DNA of 64,000 nt from Candidatus Omnitrophota bacterium. GTDB lineage: Bacteria > Omnitrophota > Gorgyraeia > B26-G9. Below the pieces are notes generated by a model. That model searched no databases and was not told the DNA's origin. It worked only from the letters and a program-made list of their open reading frames with translations. Numbering within the stretch: the first letter of the stretch is position 1; each line of letters starts with the position of its first letter. The DNA is taken from positions 14,034-78,033 of the forward strand of contig JACQZH010000013.1 of assembly GCA_016213925.1 (NCBI GenBank), given 5' to 3'. A program made the translations under genes and the position numbers. Below are positions 2,053 through 61,908 of this stretch, piece by piece.

Positions 2053-2057
2053 AGAAT

Positions 2058-3020: not shown

Positions 3021-3034
3021 GGGGAAATATTTAT

Positions 3035-5753: not shown

Positions 5754-5816
5754 ATAGGATAATCCCAAATTTTGGGATAATAAATATAACTAATTTCTCT
5801 GAAGAAAGATAAGAAT

Positions 5817-7223: not shown

Positions 7224-7247
7224 GATTAACTTTGGAGTTTTTTTTGT

Positions 7248-20329: not shown

Positions 20330-22504
20330 ATGAAAAATGCGAAAAACTTTTTTATCATTCTAATCTTAGCCTGCATCTTTTCTTTTTTTTATACTTGGAT
20401 GGCAGTGCGGGAGTTTAGCCCCTTTCAGGCGAAGTACAATGATGTTCCTGCTAAGTTGGATTTTGAGCTTCCGGCTAAGGATGTTTACCTGCTTAAAGTG
20501 AAAACTGAAGATGAATTACCAGAAATCAGTGTTAATGGGTATGTTTTAAAGAGTTTTTCCGAAAAAGCCTATAATAATGTTTTTATTAAAATCATTCCGC
20601 AGAATGCTGCCTTGAAAGGAGTAAACCGCCTGGTTGTTAAAGGCAGGGGCGATAAAAATGCGGATAAGCTTATTACTAAACTGAAAATCTCAAATTATTT
20701 GGCGAAAGATTCATCCGGCGGATTTCTGCTTTTGGCAGGGGCGCCGGTTCTTAGTCAATATCTCACAAGTAAAATAATTTTTTCCATTTTACTTGTATTG
20801 GTGATGGGAATAATTATCTTGGTGCTTAAATCAAATTTGGAGATTTTCAAGGTGCATGCTTTTGAATATAGGAAAAAATATTTGCTGCTTTTTTTATTCT
20901 GGTTTTCCGGTTTTACGGCAATGAGTGTTGTGCCTGCATTTTATAAGCTCAGGATAGCTTTTTATTCCGGCTCTTTCTTGAAGTTCAATATTTGTTATAT
21001 TCTTTTTATCGGTATGTTTTTATTTTTCCGGGTTGTATTTACAGCTTTTAAAAATTGGATTAAGTTTATCGGGCATAAGCTCAAAGAATGCGGTTCAGGG
21101 AAGGAAGATGATAAAGATGATTATAGTTACAGATCTTTGACCAGGGATATTATCCCGCAGGCTTTCTTGGCGGTTAAGGGCGCAAAAGGTTATCAGTGGA
21201 TAATCGCGGCGGTTGTTATTATTAATGTAGTGCTTAAAATTCATTTTATTGCCTCTAATTCAAAAGTGTTTTACCCTCCGGGAGGGGATGCAGCAGGGTT
21301 TGATTACTGTGCTGAACATCTGTTGAGCTGGTTTTTCAGCCCTGAAATGGTACGGCCTCCGGTCTACATATTCTTTTTAAAATTCATATATTTTTTAATT
21401 GGCATATTCCGGCTTGAAAAATTACCTGCGGTATATTTTGCCCACTGTTTGCTGGATGTCGGAACAATGCTTGCGGCGCTTTCCATGATTGAGATAATTT
21501 TCATAAAACTGAAGGCGAGGAACCTGTTAAAAATAACTTATGCTGTTTGTTATACTTTGTACTTTCCGTTTATAATTAATAGCGCGGCTATATTAAGGGA
21601 AACTTTGAATAATTTTCTCACGGCTTTGTTTTTGGTTTTTTTATTGAGATTTCATGTCGCGGAGGAAATGATGGTGAAACTGAAAATTGCAGGCAGGAAA
21701 GTTTCTTGTAATCTTAAAACGGGCTATCTTTTTACCGCGGCATTTTTTTTTACCATGACGTATCTTAACCGTGAGGATAATTTTTTGTATTTATTTTTTA
21801 TTTTGCCGTACTTTTGGTACCTGCATTTTTTTAAAAAACAAAACGGCTTTGGGAAAAAGGCGGTATTCTTTCTCGCGGTTATCGCGTTATTTAATCTGCC
21901 GTGGTTATTGCGCAATATTGTTTTTTCCCGCGAGTTTGTATGGCTTACAAAGCAAGGCGGCCTTAGCATTGCGCTTGGGCATATGTATGATTATCCTATC
22001 TTTGATGATCTGCGATGCCCTTACCTAAGTGATATGGCTGCTTCTTTTGCTGAAAAAAATGAACAATCCGGCAGTGGAATCAAAGCGGCTTTTTATTTTG
22101 TTAATCAATTATGGGCAAATCATACTTTTTGGGAAGTTTTTAAATTTTATATGACTAAAATTATAAATATGTTTAAAATTGCGCTTATCCTGTGTATATA
22201 TCCGATAAATCTGGGTTTCTACACCATATATACGACATTTATTAATGTTACGCATACGGTATTTTTAAGATTTTTTATTATATCTTGGCCGATATTATTT
22301 ATATACCGCAGGTTACTAAATCCTTGTATTATTTATGTTATTTTCATTTTCGCGCTTAAAATCTTAATGGCTTTGATGATGTTCGGATGCCCCAGGTATG
22401 CGTTTAATATGATTCCATATATGATTTTATTTGCGTGTTTTGCAATGTATATGCTGGTTGCAATGTTTGGGAAACTACTTAAAGTTTTGGGAAGAATAGT
22501 ATAA
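20330..22504 (+). CDS. Polytopic membrane protein (724 aa), candidate glycan polymerase or GT-C-like enzyme
   Basis: A signal-anchor, then a soluble segment of about 120 aa, then more than 10 hydrophobic helices. No soluble-enzyme motifs recognised. Confidence 0.5.
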   Translation: MKNAKNFFIILILACIFSFFYTWMAVREFSPFQAKYNDVPAKLDFELPAKDVYLLKVKTEDELPEISVNGYVLKSFSEKAYNNVFIKIIPQNAALKGVNRLVVKGRGDKNADKLITKLKISNYLAKDSSGGFLLLAGAPVLSQYLTSKIIFSILLVLVMGIIILVLKSNLEIFKVHAFEYRKKYLLLFLFWFSGFTAMSVVPAFYKLRIAFYSGSFLKFNICYILFIGMFLFFRVVFTAFKNWIKFIGHKLKECGSGKEDDKDDYSYRSLTRDIIPQAFLAVKGAKGYQWIIAAVVIINVVLKIHFIASNSKVFYPPGGDAAGFDYCAEHLLSWFFSPEMVRPPVYIFFLKFIYFLIGIFRLEKLPAVYFAHCLLDVGTMLAALSMIEIIFIKLKARNLLKITYAVCYTLYFPFIINSAAILRETLNNFLTALFLVFLLRFHVAEEMMVKLKIAGRKVSCNLKTGYLFTAAFFFTMTYLNREDNFLYLFFILPYFWYLHFFKKQNGFGKKAVFFLAVIALFNLPWLLRNIVFSREFVWLTKQGGLSIALGHMYDYPIFDDLRCPYLSDMAASFAEKNEQSGSGIKAAFYFVNQLWANHTFWEVFKFYMTKIINMFKIALILCIYPINLGFYTIYTTFINVTHTVFLRFFIISWPILFIYRRLLNPCIIYVIFIFALKILMALMMFGCPRYAFNMIPYMILFACFAMYMLVAMFGKLLKVLGRIV

Positions 22505-24367
22505 ATGAAGTTGGAATTTTCAGAAAAAAAACTTGATTTTGTCCTGATGCTGGCGATATTTTTTATTGCTTGCCTGATAGTTTTTTCTAATCTTGGCATC
22601 AAATATTCGTTTGTCGGTGATGATCCTGGTGTGTCAATGCAGTTTCTTGAAGGCGTGAACAGATATGATTGCTACCTCTGGAATGAGTATGTGGGTGCCG
22701 GAGCTCCTTTGCCCAGCGGGGTCCAGTCATTAGCCTGGAATACCTTATTAAGGGTTATTGGGTTATTCGTTGCGCAAAAATTTATAATCCGCATTATGAG
22801 TATTTTATTTTTTAGCTTATGCGGAATGTCAATGTATTATCTTGTGCATATGATATCAAAGACAGAAGGCATGATGCGTAAAGACACGCGTTTTTTAAAA
22901 CTGGGGGCTTTTATCGGCGCGCTTGTTTATATGATGAACCATCTAATTATGATTTTGCTGAATTTTCCTTTGTCGAAATTGCAGTTTCCTTATTGCATAT
23001 ATCCATTTATTATTGCGTTGTTTATTTATGCATTACATAAGCCGATGCCTTTTTATAAGATTTTTATTTCAGCAATGCTTTTATTAATATTATTTTGCGG
23101 GAATCCAGCAAACATGGTAGTTATTTTTAATATTTTACTTCTATATTTTATATATTTTATTTTTATTAAAACAGGGGCAAAGGAACAGTTGTTTCGAAAA
23201 CTAGCTGTATTTTTATGTGTTACGGTATTGTTCTTGTTGTTTACTGCTTTTATATGGCTGCCTACTTTGCTGTTACCTCTTTATGGAGAGGCTTTGGCAA
23301 AAGTGGATAATGCTAATTTTTTAAATGATGTTAGTTTTAACAGCCATCGAAGCTCGTTTTTATCCTTGTGGCGGTTGGACGGTTATATGTGTTTTCTAAA
23401 TTTTCCTTTTGCCGGCCAATACTATTCCAATGCTTTTTTGGTATTTTTGGGGTTTGCGGTTTACACGCTTTTACCTTTTAGCGTGCTTTTGTTTTTTCGG
23501 AAAAGCCGGTTTATTAATTATTTTGTTTTTGTTTATTTAATGTTTCTTTTTTTTGCAAAGGGAACGTATCCGCCGGGAAGAGTAGTTTTTGAATGGGTTT
23601 TTATCCATGTGCCGTATTTTGCCATGTTTAAATCGCAGTACATAAAATTGATTGTAGTGCCGGTAATATTAGGAGCGGTTTTCAGCGGTTTTTCCTCTGC
23701 GAAAATTTTATCCGAGTCGCCGAAATCTTATTTACGTTTTTTTATTGGTTTGGTTGCGATGATAATCGGATATAATCATATTTTTGTCGATGGAAGCTGG
23801 AATTATAAGTCTTTTTTGACGGAAATCCCCGCGGATTATCAGCAAACAGCCGATTTTATAAATTCGCTTGGCGGTAATAAAAGGATACTAATGTGCCCTG
23901 AGACTTCCGGTTTTCAGATTTCCGGCTGGAAAAAGGAAGATGAGACCTGGGCCAGGCATCATCTGAATGATTATCAGCAGATGTATGTTGGGGGATTGAT
24001 ACATCCGTATGTGTTCAATAAACCTTGTTTGAATATGTGGTATTTTAAAAAGTATTTTTCTTCGGAGGAGAATGCGGAATTCCCATACTTATTTCCTTCG
24101 ATATTTTTAAGGCTTAAGTACTATGATGTGGGGTATATATGCCTTGAAAAGAGTTTTTTGGATGAATATAACGGCGGATTTGGCTGCGGCAATATGATAT
24201 TAAACGGCTATAAAAAATATCAGGATTATAAGGAAATATTAAAAAAAACTAATGGCTTGGCCCTGGTTTTGGATACGCCTAACTGGTCGGTATATAAGAT
24301 TTCCGATGACATGACTTGCGCAAAAATTTATTCCAGCTATGAGGATGAGTTGTATAACACCAAGTAG
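22505..24367 (+). CDS. Polytopic membrane protein (620 aa) with a C-terminal extracytoplasmic domain
   Basis: Its start codon immediately follows the upstream stop. Many transmembrane helices are followed by a soluble C-terminal domain of about 200 aa. Confidence 0.5.
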   Translation: MKLEFSEKKLDFVLMLAIFFIACLIVFSNLGIKYSFVGDDPGVSMQFLEGVNRYDCYLWNEYVGAGAPLPSGVQSLAWNTLLRVIGLFVAQKFIIRIMSILFFSLCGMSMYYLVHMISKTEGMMRKDTRFLKLGAFIGALVYMMNHLIMILLNFPLSKLQFPYCIYPFIIALFIYALHKPMPFYKIFISAMLLLILFCGNPANMVVIFNILLLYFIYFIFIKTGAKEQLFRKLAVFLCVTVLFLLFTAFIWLPTLLLPLYGEALAKVDNANFLNDVSFNSHRSSFLSLWRLDGYMCFLNFPFAGQYYSNAFLVFLGFAVYTLLPFSVLLFFRKSRFINYFVFVYLMFLFFAKGTYPPGRVVFEWVFIHVPYFAMFKSQYIKLIVVPVILGAVFSGFSSAKILSESPKSYLRFFIGLVAMIIGYNHIFVDGSWNYKSFLTEIPADYQQTADFINSLGGNKRILMCPETSGFQISGWKKEDETWARHHLNDYQQMYVGGLIHPYVFNKPCLNMWYFKKYFSSEENAEFPYLFPSIFLRLKYYDVGYICLEKSFLDEYNGGFGCGNMILNGYKKYQDYKEILKKTNGLALVLDTPNWSVYKISDDMTCAKIYSSYEDELYNTK

Positions 24368-24404
24368 GAAGAGGCTGTTCTTAAATGAAGAGGAAAGTTT
24401 TAGT

Positions 24405-25334
24405 ATGAATAAAAACAGTAAGATTCTTATTGTCGGGTATAAAAGCATGCTTGGCAATGCTCTTGCCGATTATTTCAAAACGGAGGGTTTTAAAAATATT
24501 TTAAGCGAAGTTTTAAATAGTTTTGATTTGATGAGCCAAAGCGCGGTTAATGATTTTTTTGCGAAGGAAGAACCGGAGTTTATTTTTATGACTGATGTTA
24601 GATCCGGAGGTATTGTAGCTAATCTGGAAAGCCCGGCAGAATTTATTTATACTAATTTGCAGGTACAAAACAATATTATCCATGCCGCTTATGAGTACGC
24701 GGCGGAAAAACTTTTATTTTTGGGTAGTTCCTGCGGGTATCCTAAAGATTGTCAGCAGCCGATTAAGGAAGAGTATTTTCTTGGCGGAAAAATTGAAGAG
24801 TCAAGCGCTCCTTACGCGGTTTCCAAGATTGCAGGGATCAAGATGTGCCAGGCTTATCAAAAGCAGTACGGAGTAAATTTTATTTGTGCTGTACCTGCTA
24901 CGGTTTATGGGGGTAATGATGATTTTGACCTGAAGAGTTCGCATGTTATAAGCGCGTTGATCAGAAAATTTCATGAAGCAAAATTAAAAAATGAGGACGA
25001 GGTTAGTATCTGGGGCACAGGCAATCCTAAACGGGAGTTTTTGTATATAGATGATATGGTCAAAGCCTGTGTATTTTTGATGAATAATTATAAAAACCCT
25101 GAGATTATTAATGTTGGTTATGGAGAAGATATCAGCATCAAGGAGCTGGCTAAAACCATAAAGGATGTGGTTGGCTTTAAAGGGAAGACAGTTTTTGATA
25201 GTACAAAACCGGATGGAGCAATGCGGAAACTTTTGGATAGTACAAAAATATTTGGTCTGGGTTGGAGCCCGAAAATTAACCTAAAAATGGGAATAGAAAG
25301 AACATATAAATGGTACAAGGAGGGAGTAAAATGA
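24405..25334 (+). CDS. fcl: GDP-L-fucose synthase (GDP-4-keto-6-deoxymannose 3,5-epimerase/4-reductase)
   Basis: Near-collinear match by memory to E. coli Fcl: GGIVAN..P.EFIY.N..NIIHAA, KLLFLGSSC.YPK, YA..KIAGIK.C, SHVI.ALIR.FHEA, WG.G.P.REFL..DDM, INVG.G.D..I.ELA, FD..KPDG..RKLLD, GW. The RBS-supported start is ATG 24405; the ORF-track start at 24339 is probably upstream read-through. Confidence 0.85.
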   Translation: MNKNSKILIVGYKSMLGNALADYFKTEGFKNILSEVLNSFDLMSQSAVNDFFAKEEPEFIFMTDVRSGGIVANLESPAEFIYTNLQVQNNIIHAAYEYAAEKLLFLGSSCGYPKDCQQPIKEEYFLGGKIEESSAPYAVSKIAGIKMCQAYQKQYGVNFICAVPATVYGGNDDFDLKSSHVISALIRKFHEAKLKNEDEVSIWGTGNPKREFLYIDDMVKACVFLMNNYKNPEIINVGYGEDISIKELAKTIKDVVGFKGKTVFDSTKPDGAMRKLLDSTKIFGLGWSPKINLKMGIERTYKWYKEGVK

Positions 25335-26263
25335 AAATATTAGTTACAGGAGCTGCTGGTTATATCGGGTCGATTTTAGTGCCGGAATTATTGGAAAAAG
25401 GCCATGAGGTTATTGCTTTGGATAATTTTATGTATAACCAAAGCTCTCTATTGAACAGTTGTTTTGATAAAAAATTAACGGTGATAAGAGGCGATACTCG
25501 CGATAAGGGCATTATTGCTAATTGCTTAAAAAAGACGGATGCTATTTTTCCGCTTGCTTGTTTAACCGGTGCTCCGCTATGCAATAAATTCCCGCAGGAG
25601 GCGCAATCAATTGTTGTGGATGCCATACAAATGATCCTGGAACTGCGTAGTAAGGAGCAGATGATTATCTACCCGACTACGAATAGCGGTTACGGTATCG
25701 GGCAAAAGGGCATTCATTGTGATGAAAAAACACCTTTAAATCCGATTTCATTGTACGGTAAGGTCAAAGTCGAAGCGGAAGAAAAGCTTCTTGCTTCTGG
25801 TAATGCGATTACTTTAAGGCTGGCTACCGCGTTTGGCGTCAGCCCGCGCATGCGGCTTGATTTGTTGGTGAATGATTTTGTCTACCGGGCTGTAAATGAC
25901 CGCTTTATTATACTTTTTGAAGCAGGTTTTAAACGCAATTATATACACGTACGCGATGTTGCAAAAGCTTTTATGCATTCATTAAACAATTTTAAGAAAA
26001 TGAAGAATGAGCCGTATAATGTCGGGCTTAGTGATGCTAATTTGAGTAAATGGGAATTATGCGAAGAAATAAAAAAACAGGTGCCTGATTTTTATTTTGT
26101 CGAAGCAGAGGTGGGAGAGGATCCGGATAAACGTGATTATATTGTAAGTAATGAGAAAATTGAAAAAACAGGATTTAACCCGGATTTTTCTTTAAAACGA
26201 GGGATAGAAGAATTAATAAAAGCTTATCAGATAATCAGGAGAAATCAGTTTGCCAATATTTAG
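25331..26263 (+). CDS. NAD-dependent epimerase/dehydratase (extended SDR). It could be the dehydratase partner of fcl, but this is unproven.
   Basis: Motifs ILVTGAAGYIGSIL and a YGKVK catalytic Y..K. An AAGGAGGGAG RBS precedes it. A 4-nt overlap with fcl couples the two genes. Confidence 0.7.
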   Translation: MKILVTGAAGYIGSILVPELLEKGHEVIALDNFMYNQSSLLNSCFDKKLTVIRGDTRDKGIIANCLKKTDAIFPLACLTGAPLCNKFPQEAQSIVVDAIQMILELRSKEQMIIYPTTNSGYGIGQKGIHCDEKTPLNPISLYGKVKVEAEEKLLASGNAITLRLATAFGVSPRMRLDLLVNDFVYRAVNDRFIILFEAGFKRNYIHVRDVAKAFMHSLNNFKKMKNEPYNVGLSDANLSKWELCEEIKKQVPDFYFVEAEVGEDPDKRDYIVSNEKIEKTGFNPDFSLKRGIEELIKAYQIIRRNQFANI

Positions 26264-26309
26264 GCTTAGTTATATAATATTATTTCTCTTAAATTAAGGA
26301 GGATAGATT

Positions 26310-27305
26310 GTGATCATAAGTAAAACACCGTTCAGGATATCATTCTTCGGCGGAGGCACGGATTATCCTGTTTGGTATGAAGCCAATAGCGGAGCAGTAT
26401 TGTCAACGACAATAGACAAATATTGTTATCTTACCTGCCGGTATCTTCCGCCTTTCTTTGAACATAAGCACCGGATAGTTTATTCAAAGATTGATACAGT
26501 TAGGAATATCGCGGATATCCGCCATCCTGCGGTAAGGGCTTTGTTACAGTTTATGGATATACATAAGGGTATGGAAATCCATCATGATGGCGATTTGCCG
26601 GCGCGTACAGGACTGGGATCGAGTTCTGCGTTTACGGTCGGCTTATTATATTCATTATATGCTTTAAAAGGTATGATGCCGACAAAGCATCGTTTGGCAC
26701 AAGAAGCTATCCACATTGAGCGTGATGTGCTTAAAGAGCATGTTGGTTCGCAGGACCAAGTGGCTGTGGCTTATGGCGGTTTTAATGAGATAAGCTTTAC
26801 CCAAGACGGAAATTTCAGGGTTGAGCCGGTTGTTATTAATCGGCAGAGGCTAAACAATCTGCAGGAACATATCATGCTGTATTTTACCGGTTTTTCCCGG
26901 ATTGCCTCAAAAATAGCCAAGCGTCAGATAAAAGATACACCTAAAAGGAGCAATGAATTAAAAGCGATGCATCAAATGGTGGAAGAAGCGAAAAAGATTT
27001 TGTATAGTGATAACGGGCTTGTTGATTTCGGTAAATTACTTCATGAAGCCTGGCTGCTAAAACGGTCACTGACGCATAAAATTTCTAATATGCAGATTGA
27101 TGATATTTACTCGCAGGCGCTTTGTGCCGGCGCTATAGGCGGAAAACTTCTGGGAGCCGGCGGCGGAGGGTTCATGATATTATTCGTAAAACCTGAATTG
27201 AAAAACAAAGTTAGGAAAAGATTATCGAAGCTGTTGGAAGTTAATTTCCAGTTTGAATCAGAAGGCAGCCAGATAATATTTTATAAAGATTCCAGTATAA
27301 TTTAA
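26310..27305 (+). CDS. GHMP-family sugar kinase (HddA/heptose-7-phosphate kinase-like)
   Basis: GHMP motif PARTGLGSSSAF and a C-terminal GAGGGGF. GTG start with an AAGGAGGA RBS. Confidence 0.75.
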   Translation: MIISKTPFRISFFGGGTDYPVWYEANSGAVLSTTIDKYCYLTCRYLPPFFEHKHRIVYSKIDTVRNIADIRHPAVRALLQFMDIHKGMEIHHDGDLPARTGLGSSSAFTVGLLYSLYALKGMMPTKHRLAQEAIHIERDVLKEHVGSQDQVAVAYGGFNEISFTQDGNFRVEPVVINRQRLNNLQEHIMLYFTGFSRIASKIAKRQIKDTPKRSNELKAMHQMVEEAKKILYSDNGLVDFGKLLHEAWLLKRSLTHKISNMQIDDIYSQALCAGAIGGKLLGAGGGGFMILFVKPELKNKVRKRLSKLLEVNFQFESEGSQIIFYKDSSII

Positions 27306-27319
27306 AGAAGAGGACTGAT

Positions 27320-28150
27320 GTGAAAAAAAACGTAAAATTAACTGATTTTTTGGAAAAGAAAGCCTTTGATGTAAGGCGCAGGACCTTATCTATTCACGGG
27401 TTGGCGCCTGAAACAAGAGTGGCTTCTTCATTGTCGTGTGTGGAAATATTTGTTGCTTTATATTACGGGAAAATACTGAAATTTAAAGCGACGGATCTGC
27501 AATGGGATAAAAGGGACCGTTTTATTATAAGTAAAGGCCATGGTGCTATTTCTTTATACCCTATTCTTGCGGACCTTGGTTTTTTTAGTAAGTATGAATT
27601 GCTTAAAGTCGGTACAAAAGATTCTTTTTTGGGAGGTATACCTGACCCTGTAATCCCCGGATTTGAAACAGTTAACGGTTCTCTGGGGCATGGATTGGGA
27701 GTTGCGTGCGGGATTGCAGTAGGGCTTAAGAGAAAAAAGAAAAAAGAATCAGTTTTTGTTCTTAACGGCGATGGGGAAATGTCCGAAGGTTCTGTATGGG
27801 AAGCGATAATGTTTGCCGGACACCATAAGCTGGATAATATTACTTTGATTGTGGATAATAATAAAATCGGCATGCTTGATTATTGTAAAAACGTGATTGA
27901 TCTTGCTCCTCTTGAGGAAAAATTTAAGGTGTTTGGCTGGCATTCGGAAACGGTAGACGGGCATAATATGCAAAAAGTTTATGATATTCTAAAATATTTA
28001 AAAGAAAAAAGGACCAACAAACCCAAGGTATTGATAGCCGATACGATTAAAGGTAAAGGGGTGCCTTCGCTTGAATGCGATGTGCTTTGCCATATAAGGA
28101 ACCTTTCTAAGAATGAGATAGATAAACTTTTAAAAGATAAGGAGTTTTAA
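27320..28150 (+). CDS. Transketolase N-terminal (TPP-binding) subunit
   Basis: Motifs GHGAISLYPILADLG, GSLGHGLGVACG and NGDGEMSEGSVWEA. GTG start with an AAGAAGAGGA RBS. Confidence 0.8.
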   Translation: MKKNVKLTDFLEKKAFDVRRRTLSIHGLAPETRVASSLSCVEIFVALYYGKILKFKATDLQWDKRDRFIISKGHGAISLYPILADLGFFSKYELLKVGTKDSFLGGIPDPVIPGFETVNGSLGHGLGVACGIAVGLKRKKKKESVFVLNGDGEMSEGSVWEAIMFAGHHKLDNITLIVDNNKIGMLDYCKNVIDLAPLEEKFKVFGWHSETVDGHNMQKVYDILKYLKEKRTNKPKVLIADTIKGKGVPSLECDVLCHIRNLSKNEIDKLLKDKEF

Positions 28151-29109
28151 TGGAACAAGTTAAACAAAAGACGATGCGGGATGCCTTCTTGGAGCAGCTC
28201 TATAATCAAATGCAGAAAAGAGAGGATCTTTTTTTTGTTAGCGCTGATTTCGGTTCCCCTGTTTTGGACAAAATCAGGACAGAATTTAAAAATAATTTTA
28301 TTAATGTAGGCATCGCCGAACAAAATCTTATTAATGTTGCAACAGGCCTGGCTTTGGAAGGATTTATTGTCTATGCTTATGCGATTGCTCCTTTTTTATC
28401 AATGCGTGCGTATGAACAAATCAGGACTAATCTGGCATTGCTCTCGCAGATAAAGCAGGTTAATGTAAACTTAATCGGAGTAGGCGCGGGCTTAAGCTAT
28501 GATGTTTCCGGGCCGACGCATCATTGCCTTGAGGATATAACTTTGATGAGGCTGCTTCCGAATATAATGCTATTTTCCCCGGCTGACTGGGTAACAGCAA
28601 AGTGTTGTGCGGATTTTTCGATTGATGTTAAACAGCCGAAATATCTGCGTTTTGACGCGAAACCTTTACCGGCAATTTATGCTGATTTTAAAAATATTGA
28701 TATGGAAAAGGGTTTTTGCGAATTGAAGAAAGGGAATGATGTTTGTTTTGTGTCTACTGGGTATATGACGCACCGGGCACTGGAGCTTTCAGGTATACTG
28801 CTAAAAGACGGCATAAACTGTGGAATAATTGATATATTTATGTTAAAGCCTTTTGATGAAAAAGCCCTTCAGAAAGCCATGAAAAAATATAGGGCAGTTA
28901 TAGCTCTGGAAGAGTCTTTCGGGGAAAAGGGAGGGCTTGATAGTATTTTGTTTAATTTAATTTCCGGGCTAAATAAGGAAATGATCTATAAGAATTTTGG
29001 TTTTGCCGATAAATATGTGTTTGAATTGGGAAGCCGCAAAGAGTTACATGAACAAAACGGGTTGTCGGATAAGGTGTTGCTTGATGCAGTTAAAAAATGT
29101 CTGAATTAA
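28150..29109 (+). CDS. Transketolase C-terminal (pyrimidine-binding) subunit
   Basis: Motifs AEQNLINVATGLALEG..AYAIAPF and a C-terminal domain. Its start overlaps the stop of the N-terminal subunit by 1 nt. Confidence 0.8.
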   Translation: MEQVKQKTMRDAFLEQLYNQMQKREDLFFVSADFGSPVLDKIRTEFKNNFINVGIAEQNLINVATGLALEGFIVYAYAIAPFLSMRAYEQIRTNLALLSQIKQVNVNLIGVGAGLSYDVSGPTHHCLEDITLMRLLPNIMLFSPADWVTAKCCADFSIDVKQPKYLRFDAKPLPAIYADFKNIDMEKGFCELKKGNDVCFVSTGYMTHRALELSGILLKDGINCGIIDIFMLKPFDEKALQKAMKKYRAVIALEESFGEKGGLDSILFNLISGLNKEMIYKNFGFADKYVFELGSRKELHEQNGLSDKVLLDAVKKCLN

Positions 29110-29121
29110 AAAAACAAAATA

Positions 29122-30330
29122 ATGAAAGGCAATATTATGAAAATTCCCTTTGGCACTATTTCTATAACAGATAAAGCAAAGATGCTTGTCAATGAGGCTC
29201 TTGAATCAAAAAAGGTTTCGCAAGGCAAATTTGTTCGTGAATTTGAGGAAAAATACGCGGAATTAGTCGGCAGTAAGGAAGCTGTGGCGTTAAGCAGCGG
29301 GACTGACGCGGATATCCTAGCTTTAGCTGTGCTTTATGATTTTGGCGCTTGCCGCGGGGATGAAGTTATTATTCCGTCGCTTTCTTTTGTGGCAACGGGA
29401 AACGCGGTTTTACAGGCGGGGTTTATTCCTATATTTGTCGATATTGAAAGAAATACTTTAAATATAAATCCGGATAAAATTGAAGCGGCAATAACGGATA
29501 AGACCAGAGCGATTATGCCGGTGCATTTGATGGGAAAACCGGCACAAATGGATAAAATAAATGCAATAGCTAAAAAGCATAAGCTTTTTGTTATTGAAGA
29601 CGCAGCTGAGGCGCATGGTGCTGTATATAAAGGAAAAAATATCGGTACTTGGGGAGATATGGCGGCGTATAGCCTTTACGTCGCGCATATTATTACAACT
29701 ATAGAAGGCGGAGTTGTTGTTACAGACAGGCCTGATTTTGCCGATGTTTTAAGGTCATTGCGTTCACACGGCAGATTTTGTAAATGTAATAAGTGTGTAA
29801 TGAGTACCGGCGCGGTTACTTGTTCGAAACGTTTTAAAAAAGGGCAGGATCTAAGGTTTTTCTTTGAACGTGTGGGCTATTCTTCAAAAATGAATGAGCT
29901 TGAAGCAGCTGTAGGGCTGGGCAATCTTGAAATATATGATGAAATTCTTAGCAAACGCCGGGAAAATCTTAGGTATCTGTTTGAAAATTTTACTCAATTT
30001 GCACCGCTTCTTAATACTATTACCGAAGAAGAATATGAGGAAATTGGGCCACATGCGTTTCCGGTAATTGTCGGAGAAAGAGCGGGCTTTACCCGCGATG
30101 AATTAGTTGAGTACCTGAAAAATAAAGGCATAGATTCGCGTAATTTGTTTTTATCTATGCCTACACAGTGCCCTGGATTTGAGTTTCTTGGGCATAAACT
30201 CGGTGAATTCCCAGAGGCAGAATACGTTGCGGATAACGGTTTTCATATCGGTATACATCAGGATATCGGAGTAAAAGAGTGCCGGTACTTTTTGGATAGT
30301 GTAAAGGAATTTTTGAAAGACAATGCTTAA
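29122..30330 (+). CDS. DegT-family PLP/PMP-dependent sugar-modifying enzyme with a four-cysteine insertion, a candidate E1-type (RfbH/DdhC-like) Fe-S sugar 3-dehydrase
   Basis: DegT-like N-terminal half (GKFVREFEEKYAELVGSKEAVALSSGTDA), then an insertion HGRFCKCNKCVMSTGAVTC (C-x-C-x2-C-x8-C) at about 29770-29825 that ordinary DegT aminotransferases lack. Confidence 0.6.
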   Translation: MKGNIMKIPFGTISITDKAKMLVNEALESKKVSQGKFVREFEEKYAELVGSKEAVALSSGTDADILALAVLYDFGACRGDEVIIPSLSFVATGNAVLQAGFIPIFVDIERNTLNINPDKIEAAITDKTRAIMPVHLMGKPAQMDKINAIAKKHKLFVIEDAAEAHGAVYKGKNIGTWGDMAAYSLYVAHIITTIEGGVVVTDRPDFADVLRSLRSHGRFCKCNKCVMSTGAVTCSKRFKKGQDLRFFFERVGYSSKMNELEAAVGLGNLEIYDEILSKRRENLRYLFENFTQFAPLLNTITEEEYEEIGPHAFPVIVGERAGFTRDELVEYLKNKGIDSRNLFLSMPTQCPGFEFLGHKLGEFPEAEYVADNGFHIGIHQDIGVKECRYFLDSVKEFLKDNA

Positions 30331-30380
30331 GTAGATATTTAGTATAGAATTAAAGCGAACAAATAAGGATTATTTAAAAG

Positions 30381-31088
30381 ATGAAAGCAGTTATTTTAGC
30401 CGGAGGATTTGGAACCCGTCTTAAGCAAACAGTGAAAGATTTACCAAAGCCTATGGTAGATGTGGATGGAAAACCGTTTTTGGAATATCTGGTTTTGCAG
30501 CTTAAGAAGTGGGATATCAAAGAAGTCGTGCTTTGTGTGGGTTATTTAAAAGAGGTTATTAAAGGCTATTTTAATGACGGCAGTAAATGGGGCTTAAATA
30601 TCTCTTATTCTGAAGAGAATTCTCCTTTAGGCACTGGAGGGGCTTTAAGACAGGCAATGTGTTTGTGTAATGAAGATGATTTTCTTGCCATGAACGGAGA
30701 TTCTTTTTTGGATGTAGATTTTGATAAAATCATTTCGTTTCATCGTAAAAAAAGCGCTTTGGCGACTTTGAGCTTAATTAAAGTTGAGGATGTAAACCGT
30801 TATGGAAGGATATCAATCAATGTTGAAAATGAGGTCATTGAATTTTGCGAAAAAGGCAATAGCGGGCAGGGTTTTATCAATGCAGGGGTGTATGTTTTTA
30901 GTAAGGAAATAATTGAGCATATTCCGCTGGGTAAGGTTTCACTGGAACATGAAGTTTTGGCTAAACTTATCAATAAAAAATTTTACGGGGTGGGAATTGA
31001 AGGATTTTTTTCAGATATAGGTACCCCTGATTCTTACAAGCGTATTTCAGAAAATCCGGCCGGTTTATATAACGCATTGGGGTTATGA
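30381..31088 (+). CDS. Sugar-1-phosphate nucleotidyltransferase, short HddC/ManC-N-terminal type
   Basis: N-terminal MKAVILAGGFGTRL..DLPKPM and GTGGAL motifs, about 235 aa. Confidence 0.75.
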   Translation: MKAVILAGGFGTRLKQTVKDLPKPMVDVDGKPFLEYLVLQLKKWDIKEVVLCVGYLKEVIKGYFNDGSKWGLNISYSEENSPLGTGGALRQAMCLCNEDDFLAMNGDSFLDVDFDKIISFHRKKSALATLSLIKVEDVNRYGRISINVENEVIEFCEKGNSGQGFINAGVYVFSKEIIEHIPLGKVSLEHEVLAKLINKKFYGVGIEGFFSDIGTPDSYKRISENPAGLYNALGL

Positions 31089-31685: not shown

Positions 31686-32720
31686 ATGAGCAAAAATGTT
31701 AACGGATATGACTATAATCTGAAATTCAGAAAGTTTAAAGGGCTGGTTTTTAGTTTTGGGTTATCTTTTGCTTTTATAGTTAGTGTCTCAGCGTTTTTTC
31801 TGATTGGAGATATTAGTAAGGAAAAGATTGTAAATATTGAAGGGGAGTTTCCGGTCAGAGGCAATAGTTTCAGCAGAGAGTTTAACTTGCCTGAAAACAG
31901 TGATTATATAGTAAACATAAAATATGCTTCCGGAAATACGGAAATGGAGAGGGTAACTTTAAACGGCAAAATCTTGGAAGGCAGGATATCAAATATATCC
32001 AAAAGCTTGATTTCCAGCAGGTATTTTTATGCGCCTAAAAATATTATTCTTCCTAAAAACAAACTGGAGATAAAGTTTTTTCCTTGCGGGCCGCAGACAA
32101 TTGATTTACGTTTTAGAAATTATCTTACTTTTTTTGCCGAAGGGAACGCGGTGGCGGCTCTTAGAGAAAATCCTTTTCGATTTAACGAGAAATATGCGTT
32201 AATGTTTAATGTGATTTTATTTTTCGCAGCGGTTCTTTTTATGTGGTATTTTATTTTTAATTTTGAAGTTAAATTTCTAGGAATTTCTTTGCAGTATGCG
32301 ATTATTAACAATCTGTTATCTTTTATTTTTCCTGTGTTTTTATGTGTGGTGCTTGGCTTAGTCTCAAAATTAAGCCCGTATTTAGTAATTATGAACAATG
32401 GTTATTTATTACTGGCTTTCATGGTATTTGTCGGAGTGATTAATCTGCTGGTTAATATTATTTGCGTTTATTTTGAAGGGGCTGTTTTGAAAGTTGAAAC
32501 ACTTGAGTTCGCAGTTATAAGAAAATCTCTGTTCTGGTTTAAAAAGTTGTTATTTACCGATAAAATTGTGATAATTTTTATGGCGGTTATTATAGCAGGT
32601 GCGATTATTCTGTGCTTAGGATTGACTAAAATAGCTGAGATTGCGGCAAATACAGCATACTTTTTGATATTAAGTGCGGTTTTATTGCGATTGGTTGGAA
32701 GTGTTGCCTGGAAAGAATGA
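31686..32720 (+). CDS. Membrane protein: an extracytoplasmic N-terminal domain plus a C-terminal polytopic region, unknown function
   Basis: A transmembrane helix near residue 20, a soluble domain of about 130 aa, then at least 5 hydrophobic helices. Confidence 0.4.
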   Translation: MSKNVNGYDYNLKFRKFKGLVFSFGLSFAFIVSVSAFFLIGDISKEKIVNIEGEFPVRGNSFSREFNLPENSDYIVNIKYASGNTEMERVTLNGKILEGRISNISKSLISSRYFYAPKNIILPKNKLEIKFFPCGPQTIDLRFRNYLTFFAEGNAVAALRENPFRFNEKYALMFNVILFFAAVLFMWYFIFNFEVKFLGISLQYAIINNLLSFIFPVFLCVVLGLVSKLSPYLVIMNNGYLLLAFMVFVGVINLLVNIICVYFEGAVLKVETLEFAVIRKSLFWFKKLLFTDKIVIIFMAVIIAGAIILCLGLTKIAEIAANTAYFLILSAVLLRLVGSVAWKE

Positions 32721-35185
32721 AAATGTTTAAAATAGACGCGGTTAAAAATAATAGCCTGGTAATTATTTTTTTTATTTTTTTAAGCCTGGTTGCTACATTT
32801 CCGCTTGTATTGAATTTTTCCGGACAGATTTACGGCGATGCGAAAGATGCTTTGGGTGCAGTTTGGAATTTCTGGTGGATTAATTATGCAAAAATAAACA
32901 AAATCTCTCCGACAACAATTTCCTCATTGGTTTTTCCATTCGGCACTGATTTGAGTTCAGGGATTGATTATCCGGTTTGGAATCTGCTGAATTTATATTT
33001 AACTTATATTCTAGGGGAAATTGCTGCGTATAATCTGCAGATTTTATTTGGATTTATATTTTCCGGACTTGCGATGTATTATCTGGTTTTCTTTTTTACT
33101 AAAGATGTATATGCTTCAGTCCTTAGCGGTTTGATATTTACGTTTTCCCCGTATCATTTTGCGCATGCGTTTGAGCATCTTGGCTTATCTAATATGCAAT
33201 GGGTGGTTTTGTATATTTTGTGCTTATTCAATTTTCAAAGGCAGACAACATATAAGAATGCTGTTATTTGCGGTTTTGCTTTTTCGATTGTAGGATTTTT
33301 TGATTATTATTATTTATATTTTATGCTTATTTTTACAGCTTTATTTTTAGTGTATTGTTTTTTCTATTTTCGCGCTGATTTAAAAGTTTTTGGCAGTGGC
33401 AAGATAAAAGCAGTTTTTTTAGCGGTTGTTAATGCTGTGCTATGCTTGCTCCCGTTTATTTACAATATCGTAAAGCTGTCTTTTTTTGTTCAAAGCGCTG
33501 AAAAGCCGCAAGCATTTACTTATACGCGTCCGTTCGGGCATTTATTTGCTGATTCTGCGCGTTTATTGGACTATTTTTTACCGGCGCATTTCCATCCTTT
33601 TTTAGGCAGAATAACTAAACCGTTTATAGGATCATTTTTATATGGTGATAATCCGCCGGAACAGACGTTGTATTTGGGATTTGTCGGGCTGATTCTGGCT
33701 TTTTTGGGGTGGTGGAAGCGTGGAAAAGGGCGATACCTGGTAGGTTTGTCTGACTTAAAAAAGGAAGAAAATTTCATAATAACTTTTTTTTCGTTTTCAT
33801 TTATTGCGTTTATGATATGTTCGTTTCCTCCGTATCTTGAAATTGGAAAAATTTTCTTACCGTTTCCTTCATTTTTTTTATATAAAATATTTCCGATGTT
33901 CAGAAATTATGCGCGTATGGGTATGCTGGTTTTAATTTCTATGTGTGTTTTGACCGGATTCGGACTGAGATATGTTTTTGATAAAATTGATTCTAGCCGG
34001 AAAAGAGGAATTTTGGTTTGTTTGCTGGGGGTGGTAGTATTTTTTGAATTTCTGCCGTATCCGCCGGTTAGAGTAATTGATGTGAGTAATACTCCGGCAC
34101 TGTATAAATGGCTTAAAAACCAGCCGGCAGATACTGTTATCGCGGAATATCCTTTGGACGCTGATATTCGCGCGTATATTTTGTATCAGCGTGTCCATGA
34201 GAAAAAGCTGATTAACGGTGCGCTGCCTGGTACATATGCTTATGAAGTTTTTCAAAAAATAATTGATATTGAAAACCCGAATACAGCAGGTATTTTAAGT
34301 TTTCTCGGAGCAAAATATATTATTATTCATAAGGATAGATACCAGGCTTATGAAGGAGGTAATGTTTTGGGAAGAGCCCCTGATTTAAGCGCACAAGCTT
34401 CATTTAGGCTGGTTAAAAGTTTTGGCCCGGCAGATGTTTATGAAATAAATGCAGAAAAAATTGATCCTAAAACTGTAAAGGTAAAAGAAGCGCAAAAGGA
34501 TATTTTAGAAAATAGCAGGTATCAAAAAGAAAAAAATAACGAATGTGAAAGTCTTAATAACAGCGTATACCAGGTCAATTATTTCTGGTTTATCCCTGCT
34601 TTTGACGTCAATATCTGCAAAAGAGAAAATATTGCGGATATATCCACGGCAGTTTTAATTGCGCAGGTTAAGAGTACGGATTTTTTCTCGAATTTTTTTA
34701 AAATGAAAGGAAAGTATGTTTCGGTTTTTGATGTTAAAAATTTATATCCGCTCGAATACAGTGAAGAGGTATTAATAAAGGAGAATAAAAAAAGGGAAAA
34801 ACATGTGGTTTTTGACCATAAAAATCTTTTTATGCAGGCAAAGGATAAAATGGTCAATATATTCCCCGGAACACAGGACCCTGTTTCTATGTTCTTTTTT
34901 ATTCCGGAGCAACAGTTTGAAAAGCACAAAAAGATTATAACTTATGTCAATCCGGGTAAATCTAATTATAAAATGCAGATGGAAGTTATCGGTAAAGAAA
35001 AGATAACCTTAAATGGCTTTCAAAAAAGCTGCTGGAAAATAGAGGGTGAGTTTTTTAAAGTAAAAGAAACTGATATGAAAATTGGTTCTTTGGTGTTTTG
35101 GATTGATGAGGAATCGCGGAACAGAAAAATCCATCGGCTTCAAATCTATTCTAAAATCGGGGTGCTTAATCTAATACTCAAATAA
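32717..35185 (+). CDS. Large polytopic membrane protein (822 aa), paralog A; candidate GT-C/YfhO-like membrane glycosyltransferase
   Basis: Block-wise identity to the downstream 841-aa gene: YNLQILFGF..YYLVFFFTK, SPYHFAHAFEHLGLSNMQW, FPSFFLYKIFPMFRNYARMG, AEYPLDAD, HKDRYQAYEGGNVLG and a shared C-terminal domain. More than 10 transmembrane helices and a soluble C-terminal domain of about 300 aa. Confidence 0.65.
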   Translation: MKMFKIDAVKNNSLVIIFFIFLSLVATFPLVLNFSGQIYGDAKDALGAVWNFWWINYAKINKISPTTISSLVFPFGTDLSSGIDYPVWNLLNLYLTYILGEIAAYNLQILFGFIFSGLAMYYLVFFFTKDVYASVLSGLIFTFSPYHFAHAFEHLGLSNMQWVVLYILCLFNFQRQTTYKNAVICGFAFSIVGFFDYYYLYFMLIFTALFLVYCFFYFRADLKVFGSGKIKAVFLAVVNAVLCLLPFIYNIVKLSFFVQSAEKPQAFTYTRPFGHLFADSARLLDYFLPAHFHPFLGRITKPFIGSFLYGDNPPEQTLYLGFVGLILAFLGWWKRGKGRYLVGLSDLKKEENFIITFFSFSFIAFMICSFPPYLEIGKIFLPFPSFFLYKIFPMFRNYARMGMLVLISMCVLTGFGLRYVFDKIDSSRKRGILVCLLGVVVFFEFLPYPPVRVIDVSNTPALYKWLKNQPADTVIAEYPLDADIRAYILYQRVHEKKLINGALPGTYAYEVFQKIIDIENPNTAGILSFLGAKYIIIHKDRYQAYEGGNVLGRAPDLSAQASFRLVKSFGPADVYEINAEKIDPKTVKVKEAQKDILENSRYQKEKNNECESLNNSVYQVNYFWFIPAFDVNICKRENIADISTAVLIAQVKSTDFFSNFFKMKGKYVSVFDVKNLYPLEYSEEVLIKENKKREKHVVFDHKNLFMQAKDKMVNIFPGTQDPVSMFFFIPEQQFEKHKKIITYVNPGKSNYKMQMEVIGKEKITLNGFQKSCWKIEGEFFKVKETDMKIGSLVFWIDEESRNRKIHRLQIYSKIGVLNLILK

Positions 35186-35224: not shown

Positions 35225-37750
35225 ATGATAAAAAAAGTTATAATGAAATTGAAGAATAGCCCGGTTATTAAAGTGCATTTATTGGTTATTCTTTTGTATG
35301 TTTTCCTGAGTATCTACGCCACTTTCCCTGTTATTCTTAAGATGAAAACGTCTTTTTACGGCTCAACCATGGATACCCTGGCCTGGATATGGAAATTTTG
35401 GTGGCTAAAATATTCATATTTGCATAATATGGCATCACTGAAGAGCTCGATGATTTCCTATCCTTTTGTTATGAAACTGCCGTTTTTATATCCAATATGG
35501 GACTTTATAAGCCGATGGTTAAGTTTATTTATCGGAGAGATAGCTAACTATAATTTACAGGTACTATTCAGCTTTTTTCTTTCCGGATTATCGCTGTATT
35601 ATCTGGTATTCTATTTTACAAAACATCAATGGGCGGCATTTTTCTGCGGAGCTGCTTTTACCCTTTCTCCATACCATTTTGCCCGTTCATGGGATCATCT
35701 ATGCTTATCTAATATGCAATGGATGGTTTTTTATGTTTTGACGCTTTTTGTCCTTAAAGATAGAAGTAATAACAAAAATGCAGTTTTGCTCGGTCTGTAT
35801 TTTTTGCTGATTGGGCAATTCAGCAGTTTTTATTATAACTATTTTATGATCATTTTTACCGCCTTATTTCTGCTTGCGATAGTATTTTTAAGCAAAGACA
35901 ATTCAGGAAAGCGTGATATAAGGGAGTTGAAAAAAATTATATCACGGATGGGGATCAGCGGCCTGGTTATAATTGCCGGAATGCTGCCACAATTATGGAG
36001 CAGTTTAAGGGCAATATTTTTTTCGGATGTCTCTACAGGGATTGTCGGGGTTATAAGGTATTTTAAAGACTTGTTTTCTGATTCTGCAACTCCTTTAAAT
36101 TATTTTTTACCAGCAGTTTATAACCCGTTTCTAGGCAGAATTACCCAGCCGTTTTTAGGTACTTTCTTGTATGGTGAAAACAGCGGAGGAGAGCAGTCGC
36201 TTTTTTTAGGTTATGTGCCGCTTGTTTTAGCTATATTCGGATTTTTAAAATGGAAAGGCAGAAGAAAAGACAGTCCTGATGCCCGGGGAGAAAATTTCAC
36301 AGTGCCATTTTTTTATTTTTGTTTTTTCGCATTTATGGTTATTTCTTTTAGGCCTTATTGGGGAGATAAAAGCGGGATTATAATTCCTTTTCCATCCTTT
36401 ATCCTTTTTAAAATTTTCCCCATGTTTCGTAATTATGCCCGTTTTGGGGTTTTGGTTATGCTTTCAGTATGTGTGTTAGCAGGGTTTGGATTGAAAGACC
36501 TGATGTGTTCGATTAAGAGTAAAAGTAAAAAAATAATAGTATATTGTTCCCTCTTTTTGGTTATGCTTTTTGAATTCTTAAACTTTCCTCCGTACAGGGT
36601 AAATAATGTTGCTGATGTGCCTGAGGTTTATAATTGGTTAAAAATTCAGGATGGAGATAGAGTTATCGCAGAATATCCTTTAGAGGCAGATGATCGCTGG
36701 TATTTTTATTATCAAAGGACACATGAAAAGAAAATAATAAACTATTTTGTTCCGGGCACTGAATCTGCACAGGTCAGAAAGAAGATTCTTGATATTGAAA
36801 AAGACTATGTTCCCGGAGTTTTGAAATTTCTAGGTGTTGACTATGTTTTTATTCATAAAGATAAATATCTGGCATATGAAGGAGGCACTGTTTTAGGACA
36901 AGTCCCGGATTTGAGCAGGCAATCCGGATTAAAGCTCATAAAAACCGGTGCGGATATAGATGTGTATGAAATAACCGCATATGCCTATAGTCCTGATAAT
37001 GTTCTTATTGAGAAACAGGGAGAAAACGGGCAGCCGGTTACCATTATGCCGGAAACAGAAGTTATAGTCTCCAGAGATAGTCTGGGAAATTTCAGGTTTA
37101 ATGCAGGAACAAAATTAAGTTATGTGATAAAATATTTTAGTATTTTACCGGTTTTGAAATTAGATATAACTATTGACGGACAAGATGAGGGTAGCGGTGC
37201 CCAGGATATTTTAATAAATGCGTTTTTGAGGACAGAGAGATTAATTGAGCCATTTTTTGATTTAGAGGGCAGAGCACAATCTTATTTCGATGGGGCAAGT
37301 TTATGCAGCCGCCGGTATAAAGAAATATTGAAAATGAAAAATCGCAGCGATAAAACACGTGAAATGATTTTTGAGCAGAAGGAACATATTTTGACTGTTA
37401 ACGCTGATAAAAGGAAGATTTATCCATATACGCAGGATCCGCTTTCGCTGATGTTTTTCTTTTCGTCTTTGGATTTTAATAAAATAAAAAATGCCGAAGC
37501 TTTCGTAAACGCCGGCAAGACTAATTATAAGCTGTTGGTAAAGGTTGAGGGAAAAGAGGATATTGAGGTCAATGGCAGGCAATATTCATGCTGGAAGTTA
37601 AGCGGAGAATATTTTAAACTAAAAAAAGGAACGAAAAAGTTTGCTGATCTTACTGCCTGGCTAGAGAACTCAAAAGAGCAGAGGCTTTTATTCTTAAGAG
37701 CCTTCAGCAAGTTGGGGATTATTAGCCTGGAGTTAAAGGAGAACAATTAA
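35225..37750 (+). CDS. Large polytopic membrane protein (841 aa), paralog B
   Basis: See paralog A. The same motif blocks appear: YNLQVLFSF..YYLVFYFTK, SPYHFARSWDHLCLSNMQW, FPSFILFKIFPMFRNYARFG, AEYPLEAD, HKDKYLAYEGGTVLG. Confidence 0.65.
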   Translation: MIKKVIMKLKNSPVIKVHLLVILLYVFLSIYATFPVILKMKTSFYGSTMDTLAWIWKFWWLKYSYLHNMASLKSSMISYPFVMKLPFLYPIWDFISRWLSLFIGEIANYNLQVLFSFFLSGLSLYYLVFYFTKHQWAAFFCGAAFTLSPYHFARSWDHLCLSNMQWMVFYVLTLFVLKDRSNNKNAVLLGLYFLLIGQFSSFYYNYFMIIFTALFLLAIVFLSKDNSGKRDIRELKKIISRMGISGLVIIAGMLPQLWSSLRAIFFSDVSTGIVGVIRYFKDLFSDSATPLNYFLPAVYNPFLGRITQPFLGTFLYGENSGGEQSLFLGYVPLVLAIFGFLKWKGRRKDSPDARGENFTVPFFYFCFFAFMVISFRPYWGDKSGIIIPFPSFILFKIFPMFRNYARFGVLVMLSVCVLAGFGLKDLMCSIKSKSKKIIVYCSLFLVMLFEFLNFPPYRVNNVADVPEVYNWLKIQDGDRVIAEYPLEADDRWYFYYQRTHEKKIINYFVPGTESAQVRKKILDIEKDYVPGVLKFLGVDYVFIHKDKYLAYEGGTVLGQVPDLSRQSGLKLIKTGADIDVYEITAYAYSPDNVLIEKQGENGQPVTIMPETEVIVSRDSLGNFRFNAGTKLSYVIKYFSILPVLKLDITIDGQDEGSGAQDILINAFLRTERLIEPFFDLEGRAQSYFDGASLCSRRYKEILKMKNRSDKTREMIFEQKEHILTVNADKRKIYPYTQDPLSLMFFFSSLDFNKIKNAEAFVNAGKTNYKLLVKVEGKEDIEVNGRQYSCWKLSGEYFKLKKGTKKFADLTAWLENSKEQRLLFLRAFSKLGIISLELKENN

Positions 37751-54250: not shown

Positions 54251-54296
54251 AGGCCAAAAGCTAAAAACTAATTAAATATAAGGGAATAAGAAATTT

Positions 54297-55115: not shown

Positions 55116-55124
55116 GTAAGAAGT

Positions 55125-61893: not shown

Positions 61894-61908
61894 AAGAATG
61901 GGAGTGAA

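Follow-up and report, generated by a model that had tools for sequence, protein, structure and literature searches.

E1, ColD and SpnQ are well-characterised 3-dehydratases and the only three His-type DegT dehydrases for which biochemical studies exist, and all of them have a histidine in place of the lysine that forms the Schiff base in aminotransferases of the same fold (PMC8987622). In E1 and SpnQ, four cysteines hold a [2Fe-2S] cluster, and the electrons are supplied by E3 in the case of E1 and by general ferredoxin/flavodoxin reductases in the case of SpnQ (PMC8987622). The heptose C3-dehydratases of Campylobacter jejuni are 62–67% identical to two characterised GDP-4-keto-6-deoxymannose 3-dehydratases of the ColD type and are glutamate-dependent. 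Raushel's group has combined Cj1427 with the ColD-type HS:5 C3-dehydratase in vitro, yielding GDP-D-glycero-3-deoxy-4-keto-D-threo-heptose (PMC10680097). Here we describe a gene on a 64,000-nucleotide stretch of DNA from a Candidatus Omnitrophota bacterium (GCA_016213925.1, contig JACQZH010000013.1; this whole stretch is called the window and all coordinates without a locus number refer to it) that is publicly named an aminotransferase and resembles E1 in its active site and in a cysteine-rich loop. With moderate confidence, we propose that it encodes a pyridoxamine 5'-phosphate (PMP)-dependent nucleotide-sugar 3-dehydrase that shares the mechanism of E1 and SpnQ, which would hold a cluster in this loop and work in a GDP-heptose context. 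The gene and the residues concerned are as follows:

29122..30330, + strand: E1-like gene of the His-type DegT fold, 402 amino acids; predicted PMP-dependent sugar-nucleotide 3-dehydrase
29686..29688, + strand: CAT codon of His189, at the position of the Schiff-base lysine of aminotransferases
29767..29823, + strand: inserted loop HGRFCKCNKCVMSTGAVTC, residues 216–234, with the motif C-x-C-x2-C-x8-C; putative iron-sulfur site
29779-29781, + strand: codon of Cys220
29785-29787, + strand: codon of Cys222
29794-29796, + strand: codon of Cys225
29821-29823, + strand: codon of Cys234

The product has a full-length Pfam DegT_DnrJ_EryC1 domain (PF01041, residues 17–394, 3.1e-95), and its translation probably starts at the ATG at 29137 (Met6), because MKIPFGT is the N terminus of homologs and this codon is preceded, at a distance of 7 nt, by an AAAGG. 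An identical protein from a Candidatus Omnitrophica metagenome-assembled genome (MAG) is found in the public record under the name 'DegT/DnrJ/EryC1/StrS family aminotransferase' (P0001). The motif S-x4-K-x5-EGG reads SLYVAH189IITTIEGG in the E1-like protein; the Schiff-base lysine is replaced by His189, which aligns with His220 of E1. This histidine and the four cysteines of the loop are invariant in 120/120 homologs (66–75% identity) and also in a 56-sequence alignment (A1). The protein is very probably a PMP-dependent 3-dehydrase of the His type and not an aminotransferase. The ordinary sugar aminotransferase of the public annotation would share the DegT fold, and SpnQ has an aminotransferase side-activity when no reductase is present (PMC8987622), but we regard this assignment as highly improbable given that histidine stands at the lysine position in all 120 homologs and that the bona fide Lys-type DegT protein of the same window has no such loop.

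The sequence of E1 was rebuilt from the HMMER alignment, and His220, Cys193, Cys251, Cys253 and Cys261 are at their expected positions in it. The cluster ligands of E1 are reported to form the motif C-x57-C-x-C-x7-C (Agnihotri et al. 2004), a spacing that fits the 3BCX sequence. E1 (3BCX) is the top PDB sequence match of the E1-like protein (9e-60, about 30% identity), and residues 8–398 are aligned, with the Cys loop included. Within the loop, GRDC251YC253APGCDNTC261KKRF of E1 pairs with GRFC220KC222NKC225VMSTGAVTC234SKRF, and Cys220, Cys222 and Cys234 align with Cys251, Cys253 and Cys261, respectively. Four of the seven cysteines of the protein are packed into 15 residues, an arrangement matched by only 814 of 200,000 sequence shuffles (0.4%). 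The Lys-type DegT protein encoded at 3700-4827, in which the catalytic lysine is kept (SFYPSKNLG), shows a 24-residue gap exactly at the loop position in a pairwise alignment, and the loop is thus an insertion relative to ordinary DegT members. The preliminary description of this DNA had placed such an insertion at about nt 29770-29825 and had stated that the gene at 3700-4827 lacks it, and both points hold; its suspicion that the enzyme is E1-like, for which it had singled out a histidine at the lysine position and similarity to E1 around the cysteines, is borne out by His189 and by the three aligned ligands. Taking the homology and the conservation of the loop together, we consider it likely that the loop binds a cluster in the manner of E1. 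The AlphaFold2 (AF2) model of the protein, with a predicted local distance difference test score (pLDDT) of 88.6 and a predicted template modelling score (pTM) of 0.88, is uninformative about the metal, and the pLDDT of 51–69 in the Cys loop is what a cofactor loop would be expected to show when its metal is left out of the model.

The kinship to E1 does not make the protein a member of the classical E1 family (RfbH/DdhC/AscC), which acts on CDP-4-keto-6-deoxyglucose in 3,6-dideoxyhexose formation. RfbH is indeed the top NCBIfam match (NF011936), as E1 is in the PDB, but the score of 269 bits lies below the curated equivalog cut-off of 423, and in a neighbour-joining tree the protein falls outside the E1 clade and is not nested in it. 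This tree is a crude one (BLOSUM62 distances, no bootstraps) and was used only to place the query relative to the E1 clade. Cys193 of E1 has no counterpart, the neighbouring genes are of the GDP-heptose type, no E3 is encoded in the window, and no CDP-glucose 4,6-dehydratase or glucose-1-phosphate cytidylyltransferase was found in the 64-kb window or in eight related loci (L001–L004, L087–L090). A classical E1 is thus very unlikely, and the score and the place in the tree put the protein outside the RfbH/DdhC equivalog, in a separate clade. The preliminary description had linked the gene to RfbH/DdhC, a membership that we do not support, and had predicted deoxy-sugar formation, which is retained with the E1-like enzyme, whereas its 3,6-dideoxyhexose is probably wrong in detail, with no 4,6-dehydratase in the cassette described below and a sugar that resembles a GDP-heptose.

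The E1-like gene sits in a seven-gene cassette (24339–31088) that is found across several uncultivated phyla. The other six genes are:

24339..25334, + strand: short-chain dehydrogenase/reductase (SDR), Fcl-like; NCBIfam GDP-L-fucose synthase 404 bits (cut-off 500); PDB 1BSV (Escherichia coli Fcl) 2.8e-87
25310..26263, + strand: SDR, Cj1427 homolog; 57% identity, ungapped over 309 amino acids, to PDB 6VO6/6VO8 (3.7e-117)
26310..27305, + strand: GHMP kinase, HddA-like (heptose 7-phosphate 1-kinase); NCBIfam top match HddA 157 bits (cut-off 600)
27320..28150, + strand: transketolase-like thiamine diphosphate (ThDP) enzyme, N-terminal subunit, non-canonical; PDB split transketolase 6YAK, 4.7e-46
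28150..29109, + strand: transketolase-like ThDP enzyme, C-terminal subunit, non-canonical; PDB 6YAJ, 2.1e-38
30381..31088, + strand: sugar-1-phosphate nucleotidyltransferase, HddC-like (GDP-forming); NCBIfam top match HddC 186.7 bits (cut-off 300)

The Fcl-like SDR, which also matches several PDB entries deposited as 'GDP-L-fucose synthase', is predicted to be the C4-reductase, and possibly also an epimerase, of a GDP-4-keto sugar. Counterparts of the Cj1427-like SDR are present in 17 related loci at 62–76% identity. The top PDB matches of the GHMP kinase are the heptose kinases 3K85, 4USK and 4N3O, and in almost every related locus its gene adjoins the E1-like gene; the second NCBIfam match of the nucleotidyltransferase is mannose-1-phosphate guanylyltransferase. 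The cassette occurs in Omnitrophota, Planctomycetes, Margulisiibacteriota, Nitrospira, Syntrophorhabdaceae and one MAG labelled Thermoplasmata, and its recurring parts are the two-subunit ThDP enzyme, the Fcl-like and Cj1427-like SDRs, the GHMP kinase, the nucleotidyltransferase and the E1-like gene. A gene for a B12-binding radical S-adenosylmethionine (SAM) enzyme is usual in related cassettes and is missing from the 64-kb window; two B12-binding radical SAM genes located elsewhere in the window (5817-8717) were considered as its orthologs and rejected at 26% identity. A literature search on a cassette of transketolase, GHMP kinase, nucleotidyltransferase and DegT genes found nothing.

Based on these neighbours, the HddA-like kinase, the HddC-like transferase and the Cj1427-like C4-dehydrogenase would make the substrate of the E1-like enzyme, with the Cj1427 homolog yielding the 4-keto sugar, and we lean slightly towards GDP-4-keto-heptose as this substrate. 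PMP would be joined to the sugar's 4-keto group as a Schiff base, His189 would abstract the proton at C4', and the hydroxyl group at C3 would be expelled. The ene-intermediate formed in this way would next accept two electrons, one at a time, via an iron-sulfur cluster, probably [2Fe-2S], on Cys220/222/225/234. Since no E3 partner is encoded nearby, the electrons are proposed to come from a general ferredoxin/flavodoxin system, as reported for SpnQ. The product would be GDP-3-deoxy-4-keto-heptose, and the Fcl-like SDR would reduce C4 of this 3-deoxy-4-keto sugar, possibly after the ThDP enzyme has introduced a two-carbon branch at C4.

Several observations weigh against a cluster-dependent 3-dehydrase acting on a GDP-heptose. 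First, the margin by which E1 leads the PDB matches is small (9e-60 vs 4e-57 for perosamine synthase, which is Lys-type, and 2.5e-54 for ColD), and Foldseek searches of the AF2 model against the PDB do not separate E1, ColD, perosamine synthase and ArnB (E ~1e-34 to 1e-36), with E1 (3BCX) reaching the highest query-normalised TM-score (0.86–0.87). Because the margins are small and Foldseek is non-discriminating, the predicted E1-like character rests on the histidine and the loop and not on overall similarity. Second, a [2Fe-2S] cluster, a [4Fe-4S] cluster and zinc are indistinguishable from sequence, and the cysteine at the position of E1 Cys193 (EDCC193DALG) is an alanine, Ala162, in the E1-like protein (EDAAEAHG). 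Third, no E3-like Fer2/FNR reductase was found among all open reading frames (ORFs) of the window or in the eight Pfam-annotated related loci. Fourth, none of the matches to HddA, HddC and Fcl reaches its NCBIfam cut-off, and the link to Cj1427 rests on the identity of entries 6VO6/6VO8 as C. jejuni Cj1427, with which the depositor's molecule name agrees. No GmhA or GmhB homolog was found in the 64-kb window; these may be located elsewhere in the genome, and in loci L003 and L004 the kinase and the E1-like gene are flanked by genes for a SIS (GmhA-like) isomerase and a HAD (GmhB-like) phosphatase. Finally, a sister clade without the loop, described below, indicates that cluster and loop are dispensable for the pathway as such.

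Position 162 was surveyed for cysteine in the query, in E1 and in 150 representatives taken at 50% clustering, and the counts come from sequences that are not phylogenetically independent:

His-type proteins with a C-x-C...C loop (E1 proper and relatives): cysteine at position 162 in 4/4
His-type proteins with a C-x-C-x2-C...C loop: cysteine at position 162 in 10/29
His-type proteins without a loop: cysteine at position 162 in 84/92
Lys-type proteins: cysteine at position 162 in 2/22

The cysteine has been lost in 19 of the 29 proteins with a C-x-C-x2-C...C loop, the query clade among them, vs 8 of the 92 loop-less His-type proteins. Because its loss is concentrated where the loop has a fourth cysteine, we infer that this extra loop cysteine, Cys225 in the query, takes over as the fourth ligand and is the candidate replacement for Cys193. 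The survey also reveals that this cysteine is kept by most loop-less His-type proteins and by few Lys-type proteins, and since it is conserved there without any Cys loop, it must have a non-cluster role in the loop-less enzymes.

In the neighbour-joining tree, DegT proteins of the His type make up a large, diverse group apart from the Lys-type proteins, and Cys-loop proteins are scattered over this group, in the query clade, the E1 clade and several clades without a name. At the loop position, the sequence of ColD-like representatives is RAHGWIRD, with no cysteine. The sister clade of the query comprises 14 loci (L013–L026) with proteins of 57–62% identity that are encoded in the same cassette and keep SLYAAHI..EGG, whereas a clean 26-residue deletion takes out the whole Cys loop (RNHGIVNK--FEF). 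Examples of its genes are:

L013, 9950-11125: loop-less sister-clade gene
L016, 9908-11128: loop-less sister-clade gene

In all six loci in which the flank is visible, the sister-clade genes are paired with pyruvate dehydrogenase (PDH)-E1 alpha/beta-like and not with transketolase-like genes. The preliminary description had named a Cys motif that is not conserved in orthologs as evidence against its idea, and this applies in part: the motif is invariant in the 120 close homologs and deleted as a unit in the sister clade. Because the loop-less clade occupies the same cassette, the loop can be seen as a dispensable module.

These proteins also bring up an alternative in which the E1-like enzyme is a 3-dehydratase of the ColD type, its ene-amine being hydrolysed and PMP being regenerated from L-glutamate, while the four-cysteine loop binds zinc or nothing and stabilises the fold. 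The best argument for such a structural loop is the sister clade itself, as the chemistry of the pathway would not require the loop; moreover, an E3 partner was found in neither the window nor the eight related loci, and the GDP-sugar context is the one known for ColD and for the glutamate-dependent heptose C3-dehydratase of C. jejuni. However, ColD-type enzymes have the histidine without a Cys loop, the loop of the query is homologous to the cluster-binding loop of E1 with three ligand positions aligned, and its four cysteines are strictly invariant. Loss of the cysteine at the E1-193 position also goes together with the gain of the fourth loop cysteine, as if the same cofactor were ligated, and C-x-C-x2-C is not known as a usual zinc-ribbon spacing, which counts against structural zinc. 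We therefore give the ColD-type alternative a minor chance and retain the cluster-dependent 3-dehydrase. The loop's presence in some proteins and its absence from others are compatible with two endings of one reaction, one using electrons as in E1 and SpnQ and the other using ColD-like hydrolysis with glutamate-dependent PMP regeneration, and the loop-less sister clade may work in the latter way, regenerating PMP from glutamate.

A redox partner was also sought among fusions of related DegT proteins and none was found, the fusion partners of the relatives being GT2 glycosyltransferases, RmlD-like reductases and methyltransferases. The lineage of the query is large, conserved and misnamed, with more than 100 clusters at 90% identity that are labelled 'aminotransferase' or 'dTDP-4-amino-4,6-dideoxygalactose transaminase'. 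Another large and uncharacterised His-type DegT clade was noted, which is recognised by the motifs STYVAHLL.TGVGG and HGRD.IY..IDDDD (P0141, P0145, P0147, P0165–P0168, P0170, P0173, P0177, P0199 and others), and in this clade fusions with an SDR or with a GT4/GT1 glycosyltransferase are frequent (688–808 amino acids).

The two ThDP subunits were aligned with E. coli TktA from NC_000913.3. The GDG...NN ThDP motif, His66, His261 and His473 are retained. In the N-terminal subunit His26 is replaced by Arg and His100 by Ile, and in the C-terminal subunit Ser385 is replaced by Pro, His461 by Gly, Asp469 by Ser and Arg520 by Ala; His461, Asp469 and Ser385 are lost in all cassette-linked ThDP homologs. 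The acceptor phosphate site of transketolase is formed by Arg358, Ser385, His461 and Arg520. Pyruvate-accepting transketolases have been engineered by the substitutions H100L in the E. coli enzyme and H102L in that of Geobacillus stearothermophilus; the substitutions in the cassette pair resemble these, and the sugar-phosphate site is lost. Going by these residues, the pair is probably not part of the pentose phosphate pathway. That it merely supplies sedoheptulose 7-phosphate was considered and rejected as the main explanation, given the loss of phosphate and acceptor residues and the replacement of the pair by PDH-E1 alpha/beta-like genes at the same position in other cassettes. Enzymes of the latter kind add a pyruvate-derived two-carbon branch to nucleoside diphosphate (NDP)-4-keto-deoxysugars in the paulomycose and eurekanate pathways, and the product of E1/E3 is what YerE acts on in yersiniose formation. 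Because of the active-site changes, the PDH-E1-like swap and these parallels, we tentatively suggest that the ThDP enzyme might branch the 3-deoxy-4-keto sugar at C4.

Taken as a whole, the cassette could represent an undescribed pathway, consisting of the C4 oxidation of a GDP-heptose, an iron-sulfur- and PMP-dependent C3 deoxygenation with a one-loop cluster and no dedicated E3, C-branching by a pyruvate-using enzyme of the transketolase fold and, in most loci, a B12-radical SAM step, leading to a branched 3-deoxy higher-carbon sugar that would be new to glycans; we put this forward as speculation and think it rather unlikely to be right in full. If the proposed reaction is true, this would be the first natural route to 3-deoxy-D-glycero-heptoses, which have so far been made in vitro only. 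If the four-cysteine loop binds a cluster, it would be a compact, all-in-one-loop variant of the unusual motif of E1, and the loop-less sister clade would be a natural experiment on electron- vs glutamate-dependent 3-dehydrases. The context suggests a possible natural transketolase-fold enzyme that acts on a nucleotide sugar. The public annotation is corrected, and the cassette hints at a still unknown surface sugar of these uncultivated phyla.

A number of other features were noted in the window and in related loci. A second sugar-modification block (2043-9733) encodes an ATP-grasp protein, a HAD hydrolase, the Lys-type DegT protein (3700-4827), a GT2 glycosyltransferase, two B12-binding radical SAM proteins and a SAM methyltransferase; the top NCBIfam match of both radical SAM genes (5817-7223 and 7248-8717) is HpnJ, below the cut-off. 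Downstream of the cassette, two tandem paralogous ORFs (32717-35185 and 35225-37750) encode proteins of ~830 amino acids that are hydrophobic in the N-terminal part and have a DUF3108 domain at the C terminus, and three large ORFs without a Pfam match (20330-22504, 22505-24367 and 9752-12685; 620–977 amino acids) lie, like the DUF3108 pair, within the glycan locus. In three loci (window 38189-39316, L006 14586-15716 and L009 283-1419), a gene for a DAO-family FAD oxidoreductase lies no more than about 10 kb from the cassette, and the copies in the related loci are 64% and 37% identical to that of the window. An AbiEii-type nucleotidyltransferase toxin domain of a type IV toxin-antitoxin system is encoded amid the glycan genes (39437-40225), and the ORF at 40197-40850, which overlaps it downstream, has no Pfam match. 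The glycan region ends at a housekeeping run (53525-60124: uppS, cdsA, dxr, rseP, coding for an M50 protease, ispG (GcpE) and proS), and pilus/secretion genes (PilM, PilO) are located at 60283-62972. In the related Omnitrophica contig L087, an SDR upstream of the cassette (1-636) has a weak intein-splicing Pfam match (PF14890).

In comparison with the known systems, the enzyme shares with E1 (AscC/RfbH/DdhC, 3BCX) the DegT fold, the histidine for lysine and a Cys-rich loop that follows a GR motif and ends in C-x-KRF. The loop of the query is, however, 4 residues longer and contains all four cysteines (C-x-C-x2-C-x8-C vs C-x57-C-x-C-x7-C), no E3 or CDP-glucose genes are found nearby, and the predicted substrate is a GDP-heptose and not a CDP-hexose. 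It can be likened, by description, to SpnQ, the dTDP-4-keto-2,6-dideoxyglucose 3-dehydrase of spinosyn biosynthesis, whose gene cluster is also without a dedicated E3, but SpnQ belongs to a dTDP-deoxyhexose natural-product pathway. The pairing of a 3-dehydrase with a ThDP enzyme recalls the yersiniose system (E1/E3 and YerE) and the PDH-E1 alpha/beta-like Plm8/9 and AviB1/2 of paulomycose and eurekanate biosynthesis; in contrast to these, the ThDP enzyme of the cassette has the transketolase fold, and its branching activity is suggested solely by altered active-site residues. As in the C. jejuni Mlgh pathway (HddA, HddC, Cj1427, Cj1430 and Cj1428), the cassette has close or best-match counterparts of HddA, HddC, Cj1427 (57%) and Cj1428/Fcl, whereas it has no cupin C3/C5 epimerase and adds an E1-like 3-dehydrase, a two-subunit ThDP enzyme and, mostly, a B12-binding radical SAM enzyme. 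ColD and the GDP-heptose C3-dehydratases of C. jejuni HS:5/HS:11 are also His-type DegT proteins and deoxygenate C3 of GDP-4-keto sugars, but they have no Cys loop, obtain PMP from glutamate and are less similar to the query (2.5e-54). The enzyme described here would be the iron-sulfur-type counterpart of these C. jejuni heptose C3-dehydratases.

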